DNA of 38,717 nt, from the IMG/VR virus record IMGVR_UViG_3300035542_000088, positions 1 through 38,717 of that record; one strand, written 5' to 3'. Source of the stretch: a virus (Duplodnaviria > Caudoviricetes). The notes under the pieces were generated by a model that saw only the letters and a list, made by a program, of their open reading frames with translations, ran no database searches and had not been told where the DNA came from. Positions 17,631 through 24,245 of the stretch are shown here, one piece after another. The position numbers were made by a program, and so were the translations under genes. Positions within the stretch are counted from its first letter, which is position 1. Each line of letters starts with the position of its first letter.

Positions 17631-18088
17631 GTAACCTGTCGTTTTTCATTCCATGCAATCCGCCAAAAAGCACGGCGCAGGCATCGCACAGAATCATGAG
17701 GCGCAGAGACGGCACGCAGTTTGTCGGCAAGTTCGCAAAATCAAAAGGAAAGCGAACTCAGGATGAATTATTACTTTTGTTACAGCCATACCGTCCGAAA
17801 AAACCGCTTGAAGGCCCTGTAGCGCTCTCCGTCAGATGGACGTATCCATGGAGAAAGAGTGAATCGAAGAAGAACAAATTATCAGGTCGCCTATGGTGTG
17901 ATACACGGCCTGACTGCGATAATCTTTTGAAACTACTGCAAGACTGCATGACCCGTCTTGCGTTCTGGAATGATGATTCCCAAGTCGCGTTTCTCAAGTT
18001 TCGGAAGATGTGGGGCGATAACAACGGAATACATATAACTGTTTCCGATGAAATAAACAAGCATTTGGTTGATAGCTATGAAAATTGA
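17627..18088 (+). CDS. rusA: RusA-family Holliday junction resolvase
   Basis: RPDCDNLLKLLQDCMT...WNDDSQV...K.WG catalytic signature. Confidence 0.9.
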   Translation: MSNLSFFIPCNPPKSTAQASHRIMRRRDGTQFVGKFAKSKGKRTQDELLLLLQPYRPKKPLEGPVALSVRWTYPWRKSESKKNKLSGRLWCDTRPDCDNLLKLLQDCMTRLAFWNDDSQVAFLKFRKMWGDNNGIHITVSDEINKHLVDSYEN

Positions 18089-18335
18089 GCTGATCAAAGA
18101 GATTGTGCCGATCCCGAAAAAGGGAGTCGGCGGGAGGAATACGCCGGAAGGGAAGGCGGATCGTCGGAAGGCGTACAGTTGCCTCGCCCGCTGTGAGGTT
18201 GGGCAGCATGTTCGGTTCGGAACATCGGATCGACCACGAATCATGAACTGGCTGGCAGCACCCCGGTTTGACGACAGATGTTTCAGGGTGGCGCGGATCG
18301 ATGACCATACCTACGGGGCGTGGAGGGTGAGGTAG
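18078..18335 (+). CDS. hypothetical, possibly DNA-binding protein
   Basis: IEKxVPIP...LxVGQ...F...WRV pattern. Confidence 0.6.
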   Translation: MKIELIKEIVPIPKKGVGGRNTPEGKADRRKAYSCLARCEVGQHVRFGTSDRPRIMNWLAAPRFDDRCFRVARIDDHTYGAWRVR

Positions 18336-18534
18336 GGAGAGGAATTTTGAAACCTGAAACTGGAAACCTGAAAAATGAAATAGGTGTGAAATGTGGAGTG
18401 AATATGAGTGAAACAAAATATACTCCGGGGCCGCGGGAAGCATCTTTTGATGGAGGCTAAAAATGCAAAAGCTAAATATCAGTCAACCCTGCCGGAATAT
18501 GTAAACGGAAGATGAATATCACAATTAAAAAAAT

Positions 18535-18621
18535 CTGCAACGACTAAGCGTGAGTTTCGGTGCGCGAAACATCGACCGTGCACCGGACGTTTTCACCGTA
18601 AAGTCGATGGATTGGTTGGAC
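18535..18621 (-). other. attC-like site a (slightly decayed copy of site e)
   Basis: AAC 18539; right arm CACCG-T-AAAGTC-G-ATG-GATTG-GTT(18615); 57 bp (18555-18611) identical to 21142-21198. Confidence 0.75.
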
Positions 18622-18627
18622 AAGATT

Positions 18628-18864
18628 ATGAGAACGAATGAAGAAATTATTGCATCACTCAAAAAGGCATTGCTTAAGGGGATTGAATCGGCAAGCCATC
18701 TCGAACGGTACAAACTCGAATATATCGACGTAAACATTTCTGTGTGCCCTGGCGAACCTCCTCTTTTTGAGGGCAAGGGTTGCAATGCCGCCGAACTTTG
18801 GCAACTCATTGGAGATTTTGAAAGGCTGTCCAACGCCCAAGCTCAACCTGAGCGAGCGGAGTGA
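18628..18864 (+). CDS. cassette A hypothetical protein (may start at GTG 18550 inside attC a)
   Basis: Bracketed by GTTGGACA 18615 / TGTCCAAC 18827; reads through into attC b. Confidence 0.6.
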   Translation: MRTNEEIIASLKKALLKGIESASHLERYKLEYIDVNISVCPGEPPLFEGKGCNAAELWQLIGDFERLSNAQAQPERAE

Positions 18865-18891
18865 GCGATAGGATGAAGCGGCTGGTTCGAT
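18828..18891 (-). other. attC-like site b
   Basis: AAC-GCCCAA-GCTCAACCT...T-AGGATG-A-AGC-GGCTG-GTT. Confidence 0.75.
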
Positions 18892-18907
18892 TCCAGAAAG
18901 GTTGAAT

Positions 18908-19225
18908 ATGGATTACAAGTTCAAAAAATTTACAGGTCAGCATGGTCGGCGGCACTACGGTAGCTACATCCGCATTCAGAAAAACGGAAGGATTTACGTT
19001 TCACAGATGGCGCGGGATCGCCTTGGAAAAACAATTGATGTTTTCCTCGACCACACAGACAAGCTGATTGGTTTAAAAGACGGGGATATGTTCAAGATCT
19101 ACGGCTCCGGTTCATTCTGTTCGGCATCTCTTGTGGATGCGATTTCAGCGAGGCGCGGAACCGTCATAAACCTCTCTTGGAGAGATGACGTTGATATGTT
19201 GGTCGGAAGGTGGATTGAGGAATAA
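18908..19225 (+). CDS. cassette B hypothetical protein
   Basis: Bracketed by GTTCGATT 18885 / AATCGAAC 19224; the TAA stop overlaps the inverse core. Confidence 0.7.
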   Translation: MDYKFKKFTGQHGRRHYGSYIRIQKNGRIYVSQMARDRLGKTIDVFLDHTDKLIGLKDGDMFKIYGSGSFCSASLVDAISARRGTVINLSWRDDVDMLVGRWIEE

Positions 19226-19336
19226 TCGAACGCTACAGAACAGCGGCGAGTGGATTGACAAAATGACTACAAGCGAACACACAGATTTAAAAGCAACCGG
19301 CGCGGGTAACTCGTACGCTGATTCTGCTGGTTGTGC
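19225..19336 (-). other. attC-like site c (loop contains the start of the radical SAM gene)
   Basis: AAC-GCTACA-GAACAGCGGCGAGT...ACTCG-T-ACGCTG-A-TTC-TGCTG-GTT; 13/14 pairs once the two bulged bases are removed. Confidence 0.8.
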
Positions 19337-20210
19337 AAGGCTCGCAAGAGTTTTCGCAAGACGTACGAAGGCAACGCCCGTTGATGATTGTGCCTTCGAT
19401 AATCGTTACACTCCCGGCCTGTTCGACGAGTTCGACAAGGTGCATATCAGCGTTGCCTTCACATGGGATTGTGCGGAGGCGGAACGGCTGGCGAATCTGT
19501 GGGCTCCGGTTTGTGGGCCGAATAACGTGACGATCGGGGGCCCTGCGTTTGGCGACCCGGGCGGCGAGTTTGTGCCTGGGATGTACATCAAGAAAGGTTA
19601 CACCATCACAAGCCGAGGCTGTCCGAATGCGTGTTGGTTCTGCCAAGCATGGCGGTCTGAGGGCCGGGTGATTCGGGAACTTGAGATCAAACCCGGATGG
19701 AACATTTTGGACAATAACCTGCTTGCGTGCTCAGACGGACATGTGAAGGCAGTGTTCAACATGCTTGAGGTGCAGCCGGAGAAACCACGATTTACGGGTG
19801 GACTCGAAGCAGCCCGGCTGGAGCCATGGCATTGCGAAAGACTGGCCAGCCTGAAGCCGAAAGTTATGTGGTTTGCGTACGACGAAGCGAAAGACCGCGA
19901 GCCGCTCCTACGTGCCGGACGTTTGCTCAACGAATACGGGTTAATCAACGCGAGCAACATAGCCCGCTGTTATGTCTTGTGCGGATACGAAGGCGACACG
20001 TTTGAGGCCGCCGAAGATCGTTTAAATGAAGCGATGGATGCGGGCTTTCTGCCGATGGCGATGGTGTTCAACAAAAGGCACGGGAAGGAACAGGAGCGGG
20101 AATGGGCTCGGTTTCAAAGAGAATGGGCATCCCCCATCATTGTGGGATCGAAGAAACAAAAACGTGCTCCTGTTCCGAGGATGCACAACAGCGGAATAGG
20201 TGGAAAATGA
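19263..20210 (+). CDS. radical SAM protein (cassette C)
   Basis: ITSRGCPNACWFC (CxxxCxxC), LDNNLL, FTGGLEA, FAYD, CYVLCGY; bracketed by GTTGTGCA 19330 / TGCACAAC 20182. Confidence 0.85.
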   Translation: MTTSEHTDLKATGAGNSYADSAGCARLARVFARRTKATPVDDCAFDNRYTPGLFDEFDKVHISVAFTWDCAEAERLANLWAPVCGPNNVTIGGPAFGDPGGEFVPGMYIKKGYTITSRGCPNACWFCQAWRSEGRVIRELEIKPGWNILDNNLLACSDGHVKAVFNMLEVQPEKPRFTGGLEAARLEPWHCERLASLKPKVMWFAYDEAKDREPLLRAGRLLNEYGLINASNIARCYVLCGYEGDTFEAAEDRLNEAMDAGFLPMAMVFNKRHGKEQEREWARFQREWASPIIVGSKKQKRAPVPRMHNSGIGGK

Positions 20211-20221
20211 CCGCACAAAAT

Positions 20222-20315
20222 ATCGATTAGATGAGGTTGAGAAACCGAGGAGAAAACTATGAGTAAAGAAAAAGATTCGGGCGAGGTTCCGATAGCCTCT
20301 ATTGACTGGTTACCA
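20222..20315 (-). other. degenerate attC-like site d (loop holds RBS and ATG of the Lar-like gene)
   Basis: Right arm T-AGCCTC-T-ATT-GACTG-GTT(20309) pairs imperfectly with GATGAGGTTGAGAAACC; no AAC at the left end (ATC at 20222). Confidence 0.55.
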
Positions 20316-20504
20316 TGTCCTTTTTGTGGCACATGCAACCCCATTCGGGGAGAAAACACAAGTGGCGATATTGCCTCGCTATTCAATTTCTGGGTGGAGT
20401 GTCGCAATGAAGAGTGCGCCGCCGAAATAACAGCGCCTACGGAATTGGAGTGCGCGAAGCGTTGGAACAAAAGGACTGCTAACAGAGGGATAGGAGAAAA
20501 ATGA
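20259..20504 (+). CDS. Lar-family restriction alleviation-like Zn-finger protein (cassette D)
   Basis: LPCPFCG...WVECRNEECAA...KRWNKR; cores GTTACCA 20309 / TGCTAAC 20477 (6/7). Confidence 0.75.
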   Translation: MSKEKDSGEVPIASIDWLPCPFCGTCNPIRGENTSGDIASLFNFWVECRNEECAAEITAPTELECAKRWNKRTANRGIGEK

Positions 20505-20505
20505 A

Positions 20506-21135
20506 ATGAAAATATTAATAGGGTGTGAAGAAAGCCAAGCCGTCTGCATTGAGTTTAGAAAACTAGGTCATGAGGCATATTCCTGCGATTTGCAAGATTG
20601 CTCAGGCGATCACCAGGAATGGCATCTGAAAATGGACGTGTTCGAGGCGATAAGATCCAATGAATGGGACATGGGCATCTTCTTTCCAACGTGTACCTAC
20701 CTTACGGTTAGCGCAAATAAATGGTACAAAGATCAGCCTGCGCGAAAAAGTGGCGCGTTGGTTGGTGCTGAACGCAGAGCGGCAAGGGAAAGCGCGATTG
20801 ACTTTTTCTTGCGACTATACAACAGCGAAATCCCGAAAGTTGGAATCGAGAACCCAATAGGGTGTATGAGTACTCGATTCCGCAAGCCAGATCAGGTGTT
20901 GCAACCTTGGATGTTTGGCCACGGCGAAACAAAGGCAACGTGTCTATGGCTTCGCGGGTTGCCAAAACTTGTGCCGACAGATGTGGTCGAAGGAAGAGAA
21001 CAACGGCTTCACTATCTTCCGAAAACCGCAGACAGGGCAAAGCTTCGCTCAAAAACCTACCCAGGTATTGCACGAGCGATGGCAGAGCAATGGGGTAAAT
21101 CGAACAGCGGAATAGATGTAAAATACAACGACTAA
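20506..21135 (+). CDS. phage DNA cytosine-methyltransferase-like protein
   Basis: KILIGCEESQAV...AYSCDL, FPTCTYL (PC-like), IENP, KATCLWL, RSKTYPGIARAMAEQWG. Confidence 0.75.
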   Translation: MKILIGCEESQAVCIEFRKLGHEAYSCDLQDCSGDHQEWHLKMDVFEAIRSNEWDMGIFFPTCTYLTVSANKWYKDQPARKSGALVGAERRAARESAIDFFLRLYNSEIPKVGIENPIGCMSTRFRKPDQVLQPWMFGHGETKATCLWLRGLPKLVPTDVVEGREQRLHYLPKTADRAKLRSKTYPGIARAMAEQWGKSNSGIDVKYND

Positions 21136-21208
21136 CATGACTTTCGGTGCGCGAAACATCGACCGTGCACCGGACGTTTTCACCGTAAAGTCGATGGACT
21201 GGTTCGAT
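21123..21208 (-). other. attC-like site e (best preserved)
   Basis: AAC-GACTAA-CATGACTTTCGGTG...CACCG-T-AAAGTC-G-ATG-GACTG-GTT: arms pair perfectly except for the extrahelical T (21186) and G (21193). Confidence 0.85.
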
Positions 21209-21219
21209 TGGAGCATCAA

Positions 21220-21477
21220 ATGAAAACAAGATTATATGATGAATACATAAGACGTTTGCTCGAAGTAAATGATGAAAACAAAACAGAAGATGAACATCGC
21301 TTGATTGAGCGTGAGTTTCGCGGATGGCTCAAGGGCGTTGAAGATGCGAAAGACTACAGATTCAATGGGGACTATTACTACATCGAAAAATTTGACTCAG
21401 GAGAATTACCAGAACGTCCGCTATGTTGCGGAGTGTTTCTTGACTGGAAATCGAACAGAGGGATAGGTGGAAAATGA
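21220..21477 (+). CDS. cassette E hypothetical protein
   Basis: Bracketed by GTTCGATT 21202 / AATCGAAC 21449; GGAG RBS. Confidence 0.7.
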   Translation: MKTRLYDEYIRRLLEVNDENKTEDEHRLIEREFRGWLKGVEDAKDYRFNGDYYYIEKFDSGELPERPLCCGVFLDWKSNRGIGGK

Positions 21478-21710
21478 CCGCACAAAATATCGATAGTAGG
21501 GTTAGCTGGCCTCCGTATGATGAAATCGACGGAGAAACGCAGCAACTTATGTATTTGGTTGAGGAAGATTGGTATTGGGCGTGGCCCGGCTGGCAACATA
21601 TTGCCGATAGACTCAATGCGGAATACGGCAACAAAAGAACACCCCAATCATGCCGCGCCAAATACGGCAGGGTCAAAGCGCAGATACTAGAAGAGTACGA
21701 AGACAGCTAA
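21474..21710 (+). CDS. cassette F protein, Myb/HTH-like
   Basis: WQHIADRLNAEYGNKRTPQSCRAKY; bracketed by GTTAGCTG 21501 / CAGCTAAC 21704, with the stop inside the core. Confidence 0.7.
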   Translation: MTAQNIDSRVSWPPYDEIDGETQQLMYLVEEDWYWAWPGWQHIADRLNAEYGNKRTPQSCRAKYGRVKAQILEEYEDS

Positions 21711-21733
21711 CAGCGGAATAGGAGAAAAATGAA

Positions 21734-21919
21734 ATGAAAATGAAGCCGTTTAAAGCATGGGCTCTTATAGACCGAAGTGACGGACAAGCATTCTATTGTT
21801 ACAGTAATCGTGGCGTGCGCCATCTGGGAATCTTCGTTACGCGGGCGTCAGCACGCAAAGCAAAAAGAGATGATCAATCTGTTGCAAGAGTTGAGATCAG
21901 AGAGGTACAGGAATTATGA
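21734..21919 (+). CDS. hypothetical protein
   Basis: AGGAG RBS supplied by the repeated AAC-AGCGGAATAGG site. Confidence 0.6.
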   Translation: MKMKPFKAWALIDRSDGQAFYCYSNRGVRHLGIFVTRASARKAKRDDQSVARVEIREVQEL

Positions 21920-22101
21920 ACACAACATTAACAGATAACGATCAAATAGATATATCAGAAAAGGATCGTTTGATTGAAGCAGAGGAAATTCTTTCGTTTT
22001 TATCAGGCGGTTATTGGGTATCAATTTTAAATGAAGCCGACGCTCCGGTTAATTTAAAAATCGGCGACAGAATTATGAATTATTGGAGAAAATTTAAATG
22101 A
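21916..22101 (+). CDS. hypothetical protein
   Basis: ATGA overlaps. Confidence 0.55.
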
Positions 22102-22260
22102 AAACTCATAAAATAGGATGGCTGAATATTCCAGGTTATATCCCCGAAACATGGAATCCGATTGTCGGATGCGCCAAGATCAGTCCGGGGTGCGAGCATT
22201 GCTATGCCGAGCGGATGGCTAATCGGCAGGCGGTGGCATGAGTTTCCATCAATCAAATAA
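22098..22260 (+). pseudogene. internally deleted Gp37/Gp68 (DUF5131)-like gene
   Basis: KIGW...[28 protein letters not shown]-terminus fused out of frame to the family's C-terminal WHEFP. Confidence 0.75.
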
Positions 22261-22318
22261 CGCCCACAGCAGCCCGTAGACGTCAAATACGCCCGTAGGC
22301 TGGTAAGGATAAGGCTCA

Positions 22319-22606: not shown

Positions 22607-22787
22607 CAAAGATTTTTGCTGGATATGCGGAAAACCAAAGGATGATCCGCGATTTGCTCAGAATATCGCCCGTGACATGAGTAATGATGCGTATTTGGCA
22701 CATCACTCAAACTCCAGCAACAAGTTCCCAGACATCGCTAACCGGGCCATGATGCTCTGGGGGCATGAGTTTCCATCAATCAATTAA
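22599..22787 (+). CDS. chimeric small ORF
   Basis: 5' part duplicates 24136-24173; 3' end duplicates 22235-22256. Confidence 0.45.
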   Translation: MSDKDFCWICGKPKDDPRFAQNIARDMSNDAYLAHHSNSSNKFPDIANRAMMLWGHEFPSIN

Positions 22788-23979: not shown

Positions 23980-24245
23980 TGCCGTTTACTCCGCAGGAAA
24001 AAAGGGAATACAGGATTAAAATTAAAGAGCGAGGCCTGTGCACAAGGTGTTACAAAAACAAATCTTTAAAAGGTCATTCTCTATGCAGAGAATGTATTGA
24101 TTATTGTTCAAAACGATACAGAGAATGGGATAGAAATTTTTGCTGGATATGCGGAAAACCAAAGGATGATCCGACAAAAACAAAATGCGTTAACTGCACA
24201 CAAATAAACAGTTTTAAACAAAGCATGAGGCGGAGTAGAATATGA
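23979..24245 (+). CDS. Cys-rich Zn-binding protein
   Basis: Four CxxC pairs (CTRC, CREC, CWIC, CVNC); last plus-strand gene. Confidence 0.7.
   Translation: MPFTPQEKREYRIKIKERGLCTRCYKNKSLKGHSLCRECIDYCSKRYREWDRNFCWICGKPKDDPTKTKCVNCTQINSFKQSMRRSRI

Follow-up and report, generated by a model that had tools for sequence, protein, structure and literature searches.

A backward-facing attC cluster in a T7-like phage genome, with comparative evidence for exchange of its units at the integron crossover point

How does a run of small genes, set off from one another like the cassettes of an integron, come to lie in a phage genome in which no integrase is recognised, and do these genes move? The question is raised by the IMG/VR record IMGVR_UViG_3300035542_000088, a virus sequence of 38,717 nt (Duplodnaviria; Caudoviricetes; linear, with a completeness estimate of 70%), which was analysed at its full length and is called the window below. 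A sequence-only reading had proposed that the genes between positions 18535 and 21730 form an integron-like array of attC cassettes without an integrase. Judged from the sequences of the window and its relatives, the region is a real cluster of attC sites lacking an integrase (CALIN), which is of reversed polarity and partly decayed, and comparison with related phages gives direct evidence that its units are shuffled where integron crossover takes place. The array is neither a complete integron nor made of canonical cassettes. We consider it probable that this is a backward-facing attC cluster, that related phages exchange its units at AA|C (the bar marks the cut), and that the enzyme responsible is likely the integron integrase (IntI) of a Lentisphaeria-type bacterium predicted as host. 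Phage attC clusters lacking an integrase have already been published (PMC9892861).

The five 8-bp inverted core pairs said to bracket genes are all present where they had been placed, and all five are exact reverse complements. The interval 18400-21800 holds five such pairs, a number reached in none of 300 dinucleotide shuffles (mean 0.79, maximum 4). Because there are 19 such pairs at spacings of 100-1200 nt in the whole window, a single pair means little, and it is the gene-by-gene chain that carries weight. A sixth pair, around the Lar-like gene, matches at 6/7 positions as had been described, and becomes 7/7 through a C>G change at 20313 in the public runs X5, X7 and X9. The methyltransferase (MTase)-like gene, which had been listed among the genes acquired as cassettes, has no bracketing cores. 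As for the hairpins reported between the genes, attC anatomy was found on the minus strand at four junctions (J0, J1, J2, and J5; Table 1), while those at 20481, 21454, and 21709 proved to be half-sites or chimeras. The departure of the cores from GTTRRRY is real but not specific to the phage, being shared by chromosomal attC sites of the likely host class.

Three lines of evidence identify the sites as attC-type. A scan of the whole window for strict attC geometry (L boxes pairing around an extra-helical base, spacers of 5-6 nt, and a second extra-helical base) passed three sites, J1, J2, and J5, all of which lie in the array with the minus strand as top strand; none of 300 shuffles reached three. 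A covariance model built from 14 bacterial sites only (one misaligned row of the 14 was kept, and an earlier host alignment with misaligned right arms was not used) matched J5, J1, J2, and J0, and J3 weakly, always on the minus strand (E-values in Table 1), the best plus-strand match having an E-value of 6.8. J0 was detected by this model only, and J4, J6, and J7 fail attC anatomy. The stems also covary, as the sequence-only reading required: in 13 phage and host sites, 12 of the 14 stem pairs change on both sides, with a covariation score that none of 500 shuffles reached, in a control that is lenient because the structure was derived from the same 13 sequences. Four attC sites thus lie within 2.7 kb with no intI nearby, as in a CALIN. 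When J1, J2, and J5 are folded with their own cassette cores, the best structure of each is the att fold (chance 0.31-0.83; 0.045-0.93 in seven host controls). Folding in the array context on both strands gave no clear excess over shuffles for any of nine junction stretches (z from +1.1 to -2.2). A search against Rfam returned no matches, no terminator-like site coincides with any junction, and the J5 stretch had no exact match in genome contigs.

The attC sites lie on the minus strand and the genes of the array on the plus strand, so that a unit consists of the site first and the gene second, with the cut at AA|C at the 3' end of the gene. The arrangement of a canonical cassette, with the gene on the attC top strand and its own attC behind it, is therefore not found here, and about half of the junctions are half-site copies rather than hairpins. 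An automatic orientation test named two of five phage stretches normal; in these two, a site missed by the strict scan had left several cassettes in a single stretch, and the gene calls were relied on there instead. In loci of the host class, 18 of 18 cassettes are normally oriented (gene on the attC top strand), including those beside host integrases. Sites running against the direction of the genes were also found in the published phage genomes P12002L (L200: 30009-30055 and 30910-30954) and MW202573 (L201: 2073-2128, 2623-2699, and 3674-3734). The reversed layout is present in both, and the accessible parts of the publication do not describe it as such. A literature search, covering sources other than subscription journals and bioRxiv supplements, found no paper on reversed phage cassettes or on starts inside attC. 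Two other phage contigs hold reversed attC arrays in which homologous cassettes are reordered (L161:560-1380 and L185:20-1020), and where the two have a gene in common, the site that precedes it shows compensatory changes.

Do the units move? Parts of the array are contained in 24 public runs from 18 studies; eight of these runs were compared, all as contigs, and one of them, X1, may be the run from which the window itself derives. The ends of matching stretches were tallied by hand, leaving out places outside 18450-21760 and ends at spacers of clustered regularly interspaced short palindromic repeats (CRISPR), and counting identical flanks once. Nineteen of the 33 listed ends fall at AAC (chance, 1.6% per end) and none at GTT, which bears out the expectation that genes are gained or lost exactly at the AAC core, with units gained, lost, or reordered in related phages. 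One X7 contig, for example, consists of 18698-19230, 20224-20497, and 21471-21783, and is without the radical SAM unit and without the MTase gene and gene 6. The joint 19230->20224 was found in X4, X5, and X7 (two studies), 19223->21449 in X4 and X14 (two studies; the short sides measure 22 and 31), and 20497->21471 in X4 and X7. Skips of 2225 and 973 nt are the same as the distances from one AAC to another. One X4 contig is exactly 18832-19231, that is, J1 with gene 2. Each of two foreign gene ends is found joined at AAC to two distinct sites, and in some contigs a foreign site comes after the AAC of gene 1, 4, or 6; in most cases the upstream site stays with its gene and the site downstream of the gene varies. 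The viral contigs L002 and L003 resemble each other from one AAC onwards, whereas upstream of it their sequences are unrelated, and the J5 site begins at AAC ahead of other genes in L001 and L163. The radical SAM homologue P0001 (92% in the alignment) has the N-terminal extension in common and departs from the window's protein once past the His-Asn that the 3' core encodes; P0001 and P0002 both diverge immediately past the AAC-coded Asn. The crossover at AA|C is read here from natural variants only. In separate observations, an X5 contig runs on beyond 18535, which is not at the AAC, into a GTT core and sequence resembling that with which the gene at 18069-18335 ends, and a variant at 21542 in X4, X5, and X14 has J6 and the first 40 nt after the core as in the Myb/helix-turn-helix (HTH) gene, followed by other sequence.

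Exchange at AA|C fits IntI because the bottom strand of attC, which folds with extra-helical bases near L'', is described as being cut by this enzyme between A and C of AAC (PMC5027507). In the mechanism that we propose, the plus (coding) strand would fold into the recombining hairpin, the cassette would have the form C-site-GTT-gene-AA, and host IntI would excise it and insert it elsewhere, the target being either another attC site or the terminal half-site of the array. Transcription of the genes would come from the phage's own rightward transcript, some of the genes using a ribosome-binding site (RBS) and start codon carried in the site, and a second, less exact process acting on short common sequence around RBS-ATG would make the chimeric sites and half-sites.

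The claim that the phage has no integrase holds as far as it could be tested, no tyrosine recombinase being found in the window or in its close relative G002; PF00589 (tyrosine recombinase) likewise had no match in the phages G003 and G004. The distant complete phage G005 has a tyrosine recombinase, which scores 15.5 bits against the IntI model (cut-off, 265) and is not IntI-like. No intI gene, as a complete integron would have, was found in the phage. Promoter-like matches are at chance level (14, with 15.4 expected), and a normal cassette promoter (Pc) would oppose these genes. A CRISPR repeat stands beside 30-nt matches to the phage in the X1, X3, and X7 contigs, the spacer matches lying at 18237-18270, ~18695, 18956, and 19680, some of them inside cassette genes; a second repeat type occurs at the 18956 match. 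The exact repeat is present in one genome of the GTDB set, G001, an uncultured Lentisphaerales metagenome-assembled genome that encodes an IntI above the cut-off. IntI was found in 80 of 151 genomes of its class, several of which have 2-5 copies. A Lentisphaeria-type bacterium is accordingly predicted as host from these matches, by an indirect link, the class name Lentisphaeria itself being an inferred one. The primase-helicase had relatives at 37-39% in two of 301 genomes, neither with another common gene or an attC match, and the RusA relatives L005, L009, L011, and L079 had no attC match. The L-box pattern gave 44 matches in genomes of many phyla, many of them by chance, and does not by itself name the host.

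Where would incoming units be inserted? A motif starting with AACAG(C/A)GG(A/G)ATAG occurs in five copies in the array, mostly followed by an RBS and ATG and without a matching arm. The last copy ends the array, and other gene ends join there at AAC. The array of G005, whose RusA is 49% identical, ends with the same motif, which there follows immediately on a cassette whose cores match over 11 nt. The terminal half-site is likely to be the insertion point of the array, and the half-site may be either attI-like or a degenerate attC. The motif had 10 matches in viral contigs, three of which are G002, G004, and G005. The other seven show no cassette signs, and 20 matches in metagenome contigs, none otherwise like the array, were taken as chance. 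A search with the right-arm motif gave 46 loci, four of which hold attC sites (L161, L163, L166, and L185), the remainder being chance. Secondary sites of IntI have the consensus GWT. The AT|C joint of the Lar unit may recall such sites, and its four common letters also fit microhomology.

Some of the genes appear to begin inside the sites. Past position 19263, which lies inside J2, the radical SAM gene offers no in-frame start until its conserved body, at which 13 of 20 aligned homologues start with Met, and the Lar-like gene relies on ATG 20259, with its RBS inside J3; both are predicted from sequence to start within their attC site. For the Myb/HTH gene there are two candidate starts, ATG 21474, whose RBS lies inside J6, and a later ATG; genes 2 and 6 have their own RBS 3' of the core. 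In G003 and G005, six of 12 examined sites hold an in-frame start with an RBS-like word. The reading phase across the core is not fixed, offsets of 0, 1, and 2 all occurring. The bottom strands of attC are reported to be purine-rich (PMC5027507), which suggests that they would suit an RBS; the purine content of the sites here is 0.51-0.73, compared with 0.57 for the region. In the alignment of radical SAM homologues, the usual Met is replaced in P0002-P0005 and P0028 by N-terminal extensions that are unrelated to one another, which is what a gene placed behind different attC sites would be expected to show.

Several observations weigh against an IntI-driven exchange in a Lentisphaeria-type host. 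Fourteen of the 33 listed ends are not at AAC (two are in AAC register inside the common half-site, one is the AT|C joint, and the others lie in J6, in the Myb/HTH gene, in the MTase gene, or at 18535), and 34 further loose-end rows stand outside the tally. G002 departs from the window inside J6 (~21484), the right arm being kept with the gene and the left part being different, and in one X5 contig gene 1 is preceded by 29 unaligned letters, which stop 4 nt short of the GTT of this gene; these breakpoints point to a second process that rearranges the interiors of sites. The contigs show end products only, with no recombination observed and no circular cassette seen. The half-site, compared by eye, is unlike four host attI candidates. 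J1 or J5 had served as query in finding part of the training set of the covariance model, so that the model favours these two and J2 is the cleanest match. The att-fold chance is <0.005 for J0, J3, and J6, and folding energy barely separates the strands. Finally, no spacer of G001 matches the phage between 5000 and 24500, and a prophage search found none (RusA, three weak loci; portal, none).

We regard it as unlikely that the attC sites are relics captured once, with present exchange carried out by homologous or microhomology recombination of the phage (exonuclease, RusA) at repeats. The genes for both enzymes are there, the five half-site copies and a 70-nt duplicate supply homology, and several decayed sites and the breakpoints inside J6 are in keeping with it; yet many joints have only 3-6 core letters in common with unrelated sequence beyond, one gene end joins different, unrelated sites, and the cores are complementary in five of six cassettes with covarying stems. 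Such recombination likely explains the chimeric sites, but not the AA|C joints. We give still less credence to exchange at AA|C by a recombinase of phage origin, either unrecognised in this phage or supplied by a co-infecting one. Many phage open reading frames (ORFs) have no family match, the half-site does not resemble the host attI candidates, and G005 does have a tyrosine recombinase; against this, PF00589 is missing from the window, G002, and G003, the window and G002 jointly covering the circle, the G005 enzyme scores far below the IntI cut-off, and the sites belong to the attC family of the host class. An ordinary array from a bacterium in normal orientation (gene, then attC) is very improbable: core complementarity fits either orientation and TJE1 has a normal array, but no plus-strand site scores, the site after a gene varies where the site before it is mostly kept, and the minus-only model matches together with the absence of listed ends at GTT refute this layout as far as the contigs go. 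Chance palindromes or terminators between small phage genes, to which the 19 core pairs of the window and the unexceptional folding of the junctions would be congenial, are refuted by the core-pair and geometry shuffles and the bacterial-only model matches, with covariation, the AAC ends, and the lack of terminators at junctions also against them, and we attach practically no weight to them.

The exchange by a host IntI that we favour has to be set beside known systems. Qi et al. (2023) described 17 phage CALINs, found that IntI1 recombined five phage sites, and proposed that a bacterial IntI is borrowed (PMC9892861); the divergent sites of P12002L were attributed to mosaicism (PMC9892861). 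Those CALINs resemble the present array in having several attC sites within a few kb, no integrase, and small unassigned genes and DNA methyltransferases as cargo. They differ in that the TJE1 and PH101 arrays are called typical, and in that the accessible parts of that paper do not mention antisense genes or start codons and show no population shuffling; the TJE1 array, which we checked, is in normal orientation. The sedentary chromosomal integrons of the Lentisphaeria-type (G001) class and of Kiritimatiellia are similar in lengths, L boxes, stems, and non-standard cores, but they have intI and cassettes of normal polarity, unlike the reversed phage array without intI. A normal cassette that is inserted the wrong way, through its top strand (Nivina et al., 2016; PMC5027507), would also have the site body before the gene; it would keep the extra-helical base on the arm after the gene's AAC, whereas here it is on the arm beside the gene's GTT, from which we infer that the site itself is reversed, with AA|C as the favoured cut. 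In mobile class 1 and 2 integrons, cassettes with a truncated attC or an attI piece (delta-attI type) are reported to be still moved by IntI1 (PMC12901181). The MTase and Myb/HTH units look analogous, with a half-site instead of a hairpin; unlike the delta-attI pieces as described, the half-site here is a putative attI at most, is present in five copies, and carries an RBS and start codon.

A bolder reading, which we offer only tentatively and hold to be rather doubtful, is that phages run their own mirror-image integron, in which reversed attC sites double as portable RBS and start, host IntI does the shuffling, the dock is phage-specific, and new cassettes arise by fusing phage genes behind a copy of the site or dock. 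If this were true, the cassettes would be silent in the integron of the host, and the occurrence of one site before four unrelated genes in three phages, with five dock copies, would be cassette birth in progress. The origin of cassettes is described as an open process (PMC8352920, PMC5371416), and one site before unrelated genes, together with genes that have lost their own starts, would give a handle on the first making of cassettes. Integrons are seen as bacterial devices, and lately as stores of anti-phage genes; a phage that reorders its own pool of reversed cassettes (restriction-alleviation, methyltransferase, radical SAM) by means of the host enzyme would, if real, reach mosaicism and counter-defence in a site-specific way. 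The natural variants supply exact, testable recombination substrates.

Table 1. Sites, half-sites, and genes of the array, with positions in the window.
Feature	Position	Strand	Evidence or remark
attC site J0, first of array, partly decayed	18539..18617	-	bacterial-only covariance model E 2e-8; repeat D2; 96% like J5 over 70 nt; att-fold chance 0.004
Cassette gene 1, product without family match	18628..18864	+	alternative ATG 18607 inside J0
attC site J1, 56 nt AAC to GTT	18832..18887	-	E 2.7e-9; ungapped match to 56-nt chromosomal attC of G142
Cassette gene 2	18908..19225	+	weak match to phrog_3828
attC site J2	19229..19332	-	E 1.4e-8; contains predicted start codon (19263) of radical SAM gene
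Cassette gene 3, radical SAM domain protein, predicted attC-encoded N-terminal extension	19263..20210	+	phrog_9298 E 4.9e-18; alignment of 20 homologues
Half-site copy 1, likely docking sequence	20187..20223	+	repeat family D1
attC site J3, truncated, joint AT|C not AA|C	20224..20311	-	E 0.68; joint 19230->20224 in X4, X5, X7; RBS and ATG (20259) of Lar-like gene inside
Cassette gene 4, Lar-like restriction-alleviation protein	20259..20504	+	PF14354 E 7e-6, TIGR03655 E 1.2e-5; below curated cut-offs
Half-site copy 2, with RBS and ATG of MTase gene	20481..20513	+	repeats D1 and D3
DNA methyltransferase-like gene; half-site at head, AAC core at end	20506..21135	+	phrog_757 E 4.9e-61; missing between 20497 and 21471 in X4, X7
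Half-site copy 3, fused to probable 3' remnant of deleted cassette	21103..21126	+	in X4, X14 longer gene end with identical last letters before AAC
attC site J5, best preserved	21127..21204	-	E 2e-13; precedes other genes in two other phage contigs; 75-86% like sites in 5/201 bacterial genomes
Cassette gene 6, product without assigned function	21220..21477	+	gene call
Junction J6, formed by half-site copy 4 (which carries RBS and ATG 21474) and unmatched right arm	21454..21503	+	left part differs in G002
Cassette gene 7, Myb/HTH-like	21474..21710	+	PF13921 E 4.8e-5
Terminal half-site J7, likely docking site of array	21709..21740	+	other gene ends abut J7 at AAC in X4, X14; motif also ends array of phage G005

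The identity of the window as a phage was confirmed in a scan of 57 ORFs: the minus strand encodes a T7-like portal together with tail and internal virion proteins, and the plus strand has genes for an exonuclease, a helicase loader, a primase-helicase, and RusA besides small genes, as in a T7-like podovirus. G002 is 94-99% identical to the window, and ~2.1 kb of it bridges both window ends; in this bridge are the end of a scaffold-like gene and three ORFs that, from where they lie, would be capsid and tail tube, labels that have no family match. PADLOC matched none of eight proteins. Downstream of the array, 22098-22311 holds a 47-aa fragment of a DUF5131 (gp37-like) gene; 22113-22311 is missing from the near-identical G002, and 22232-22260 repeats 22759-22787. 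An exact 38-nt repeat at 22612-22649 and 24136-24173 is common to two small Cys-rich genes.

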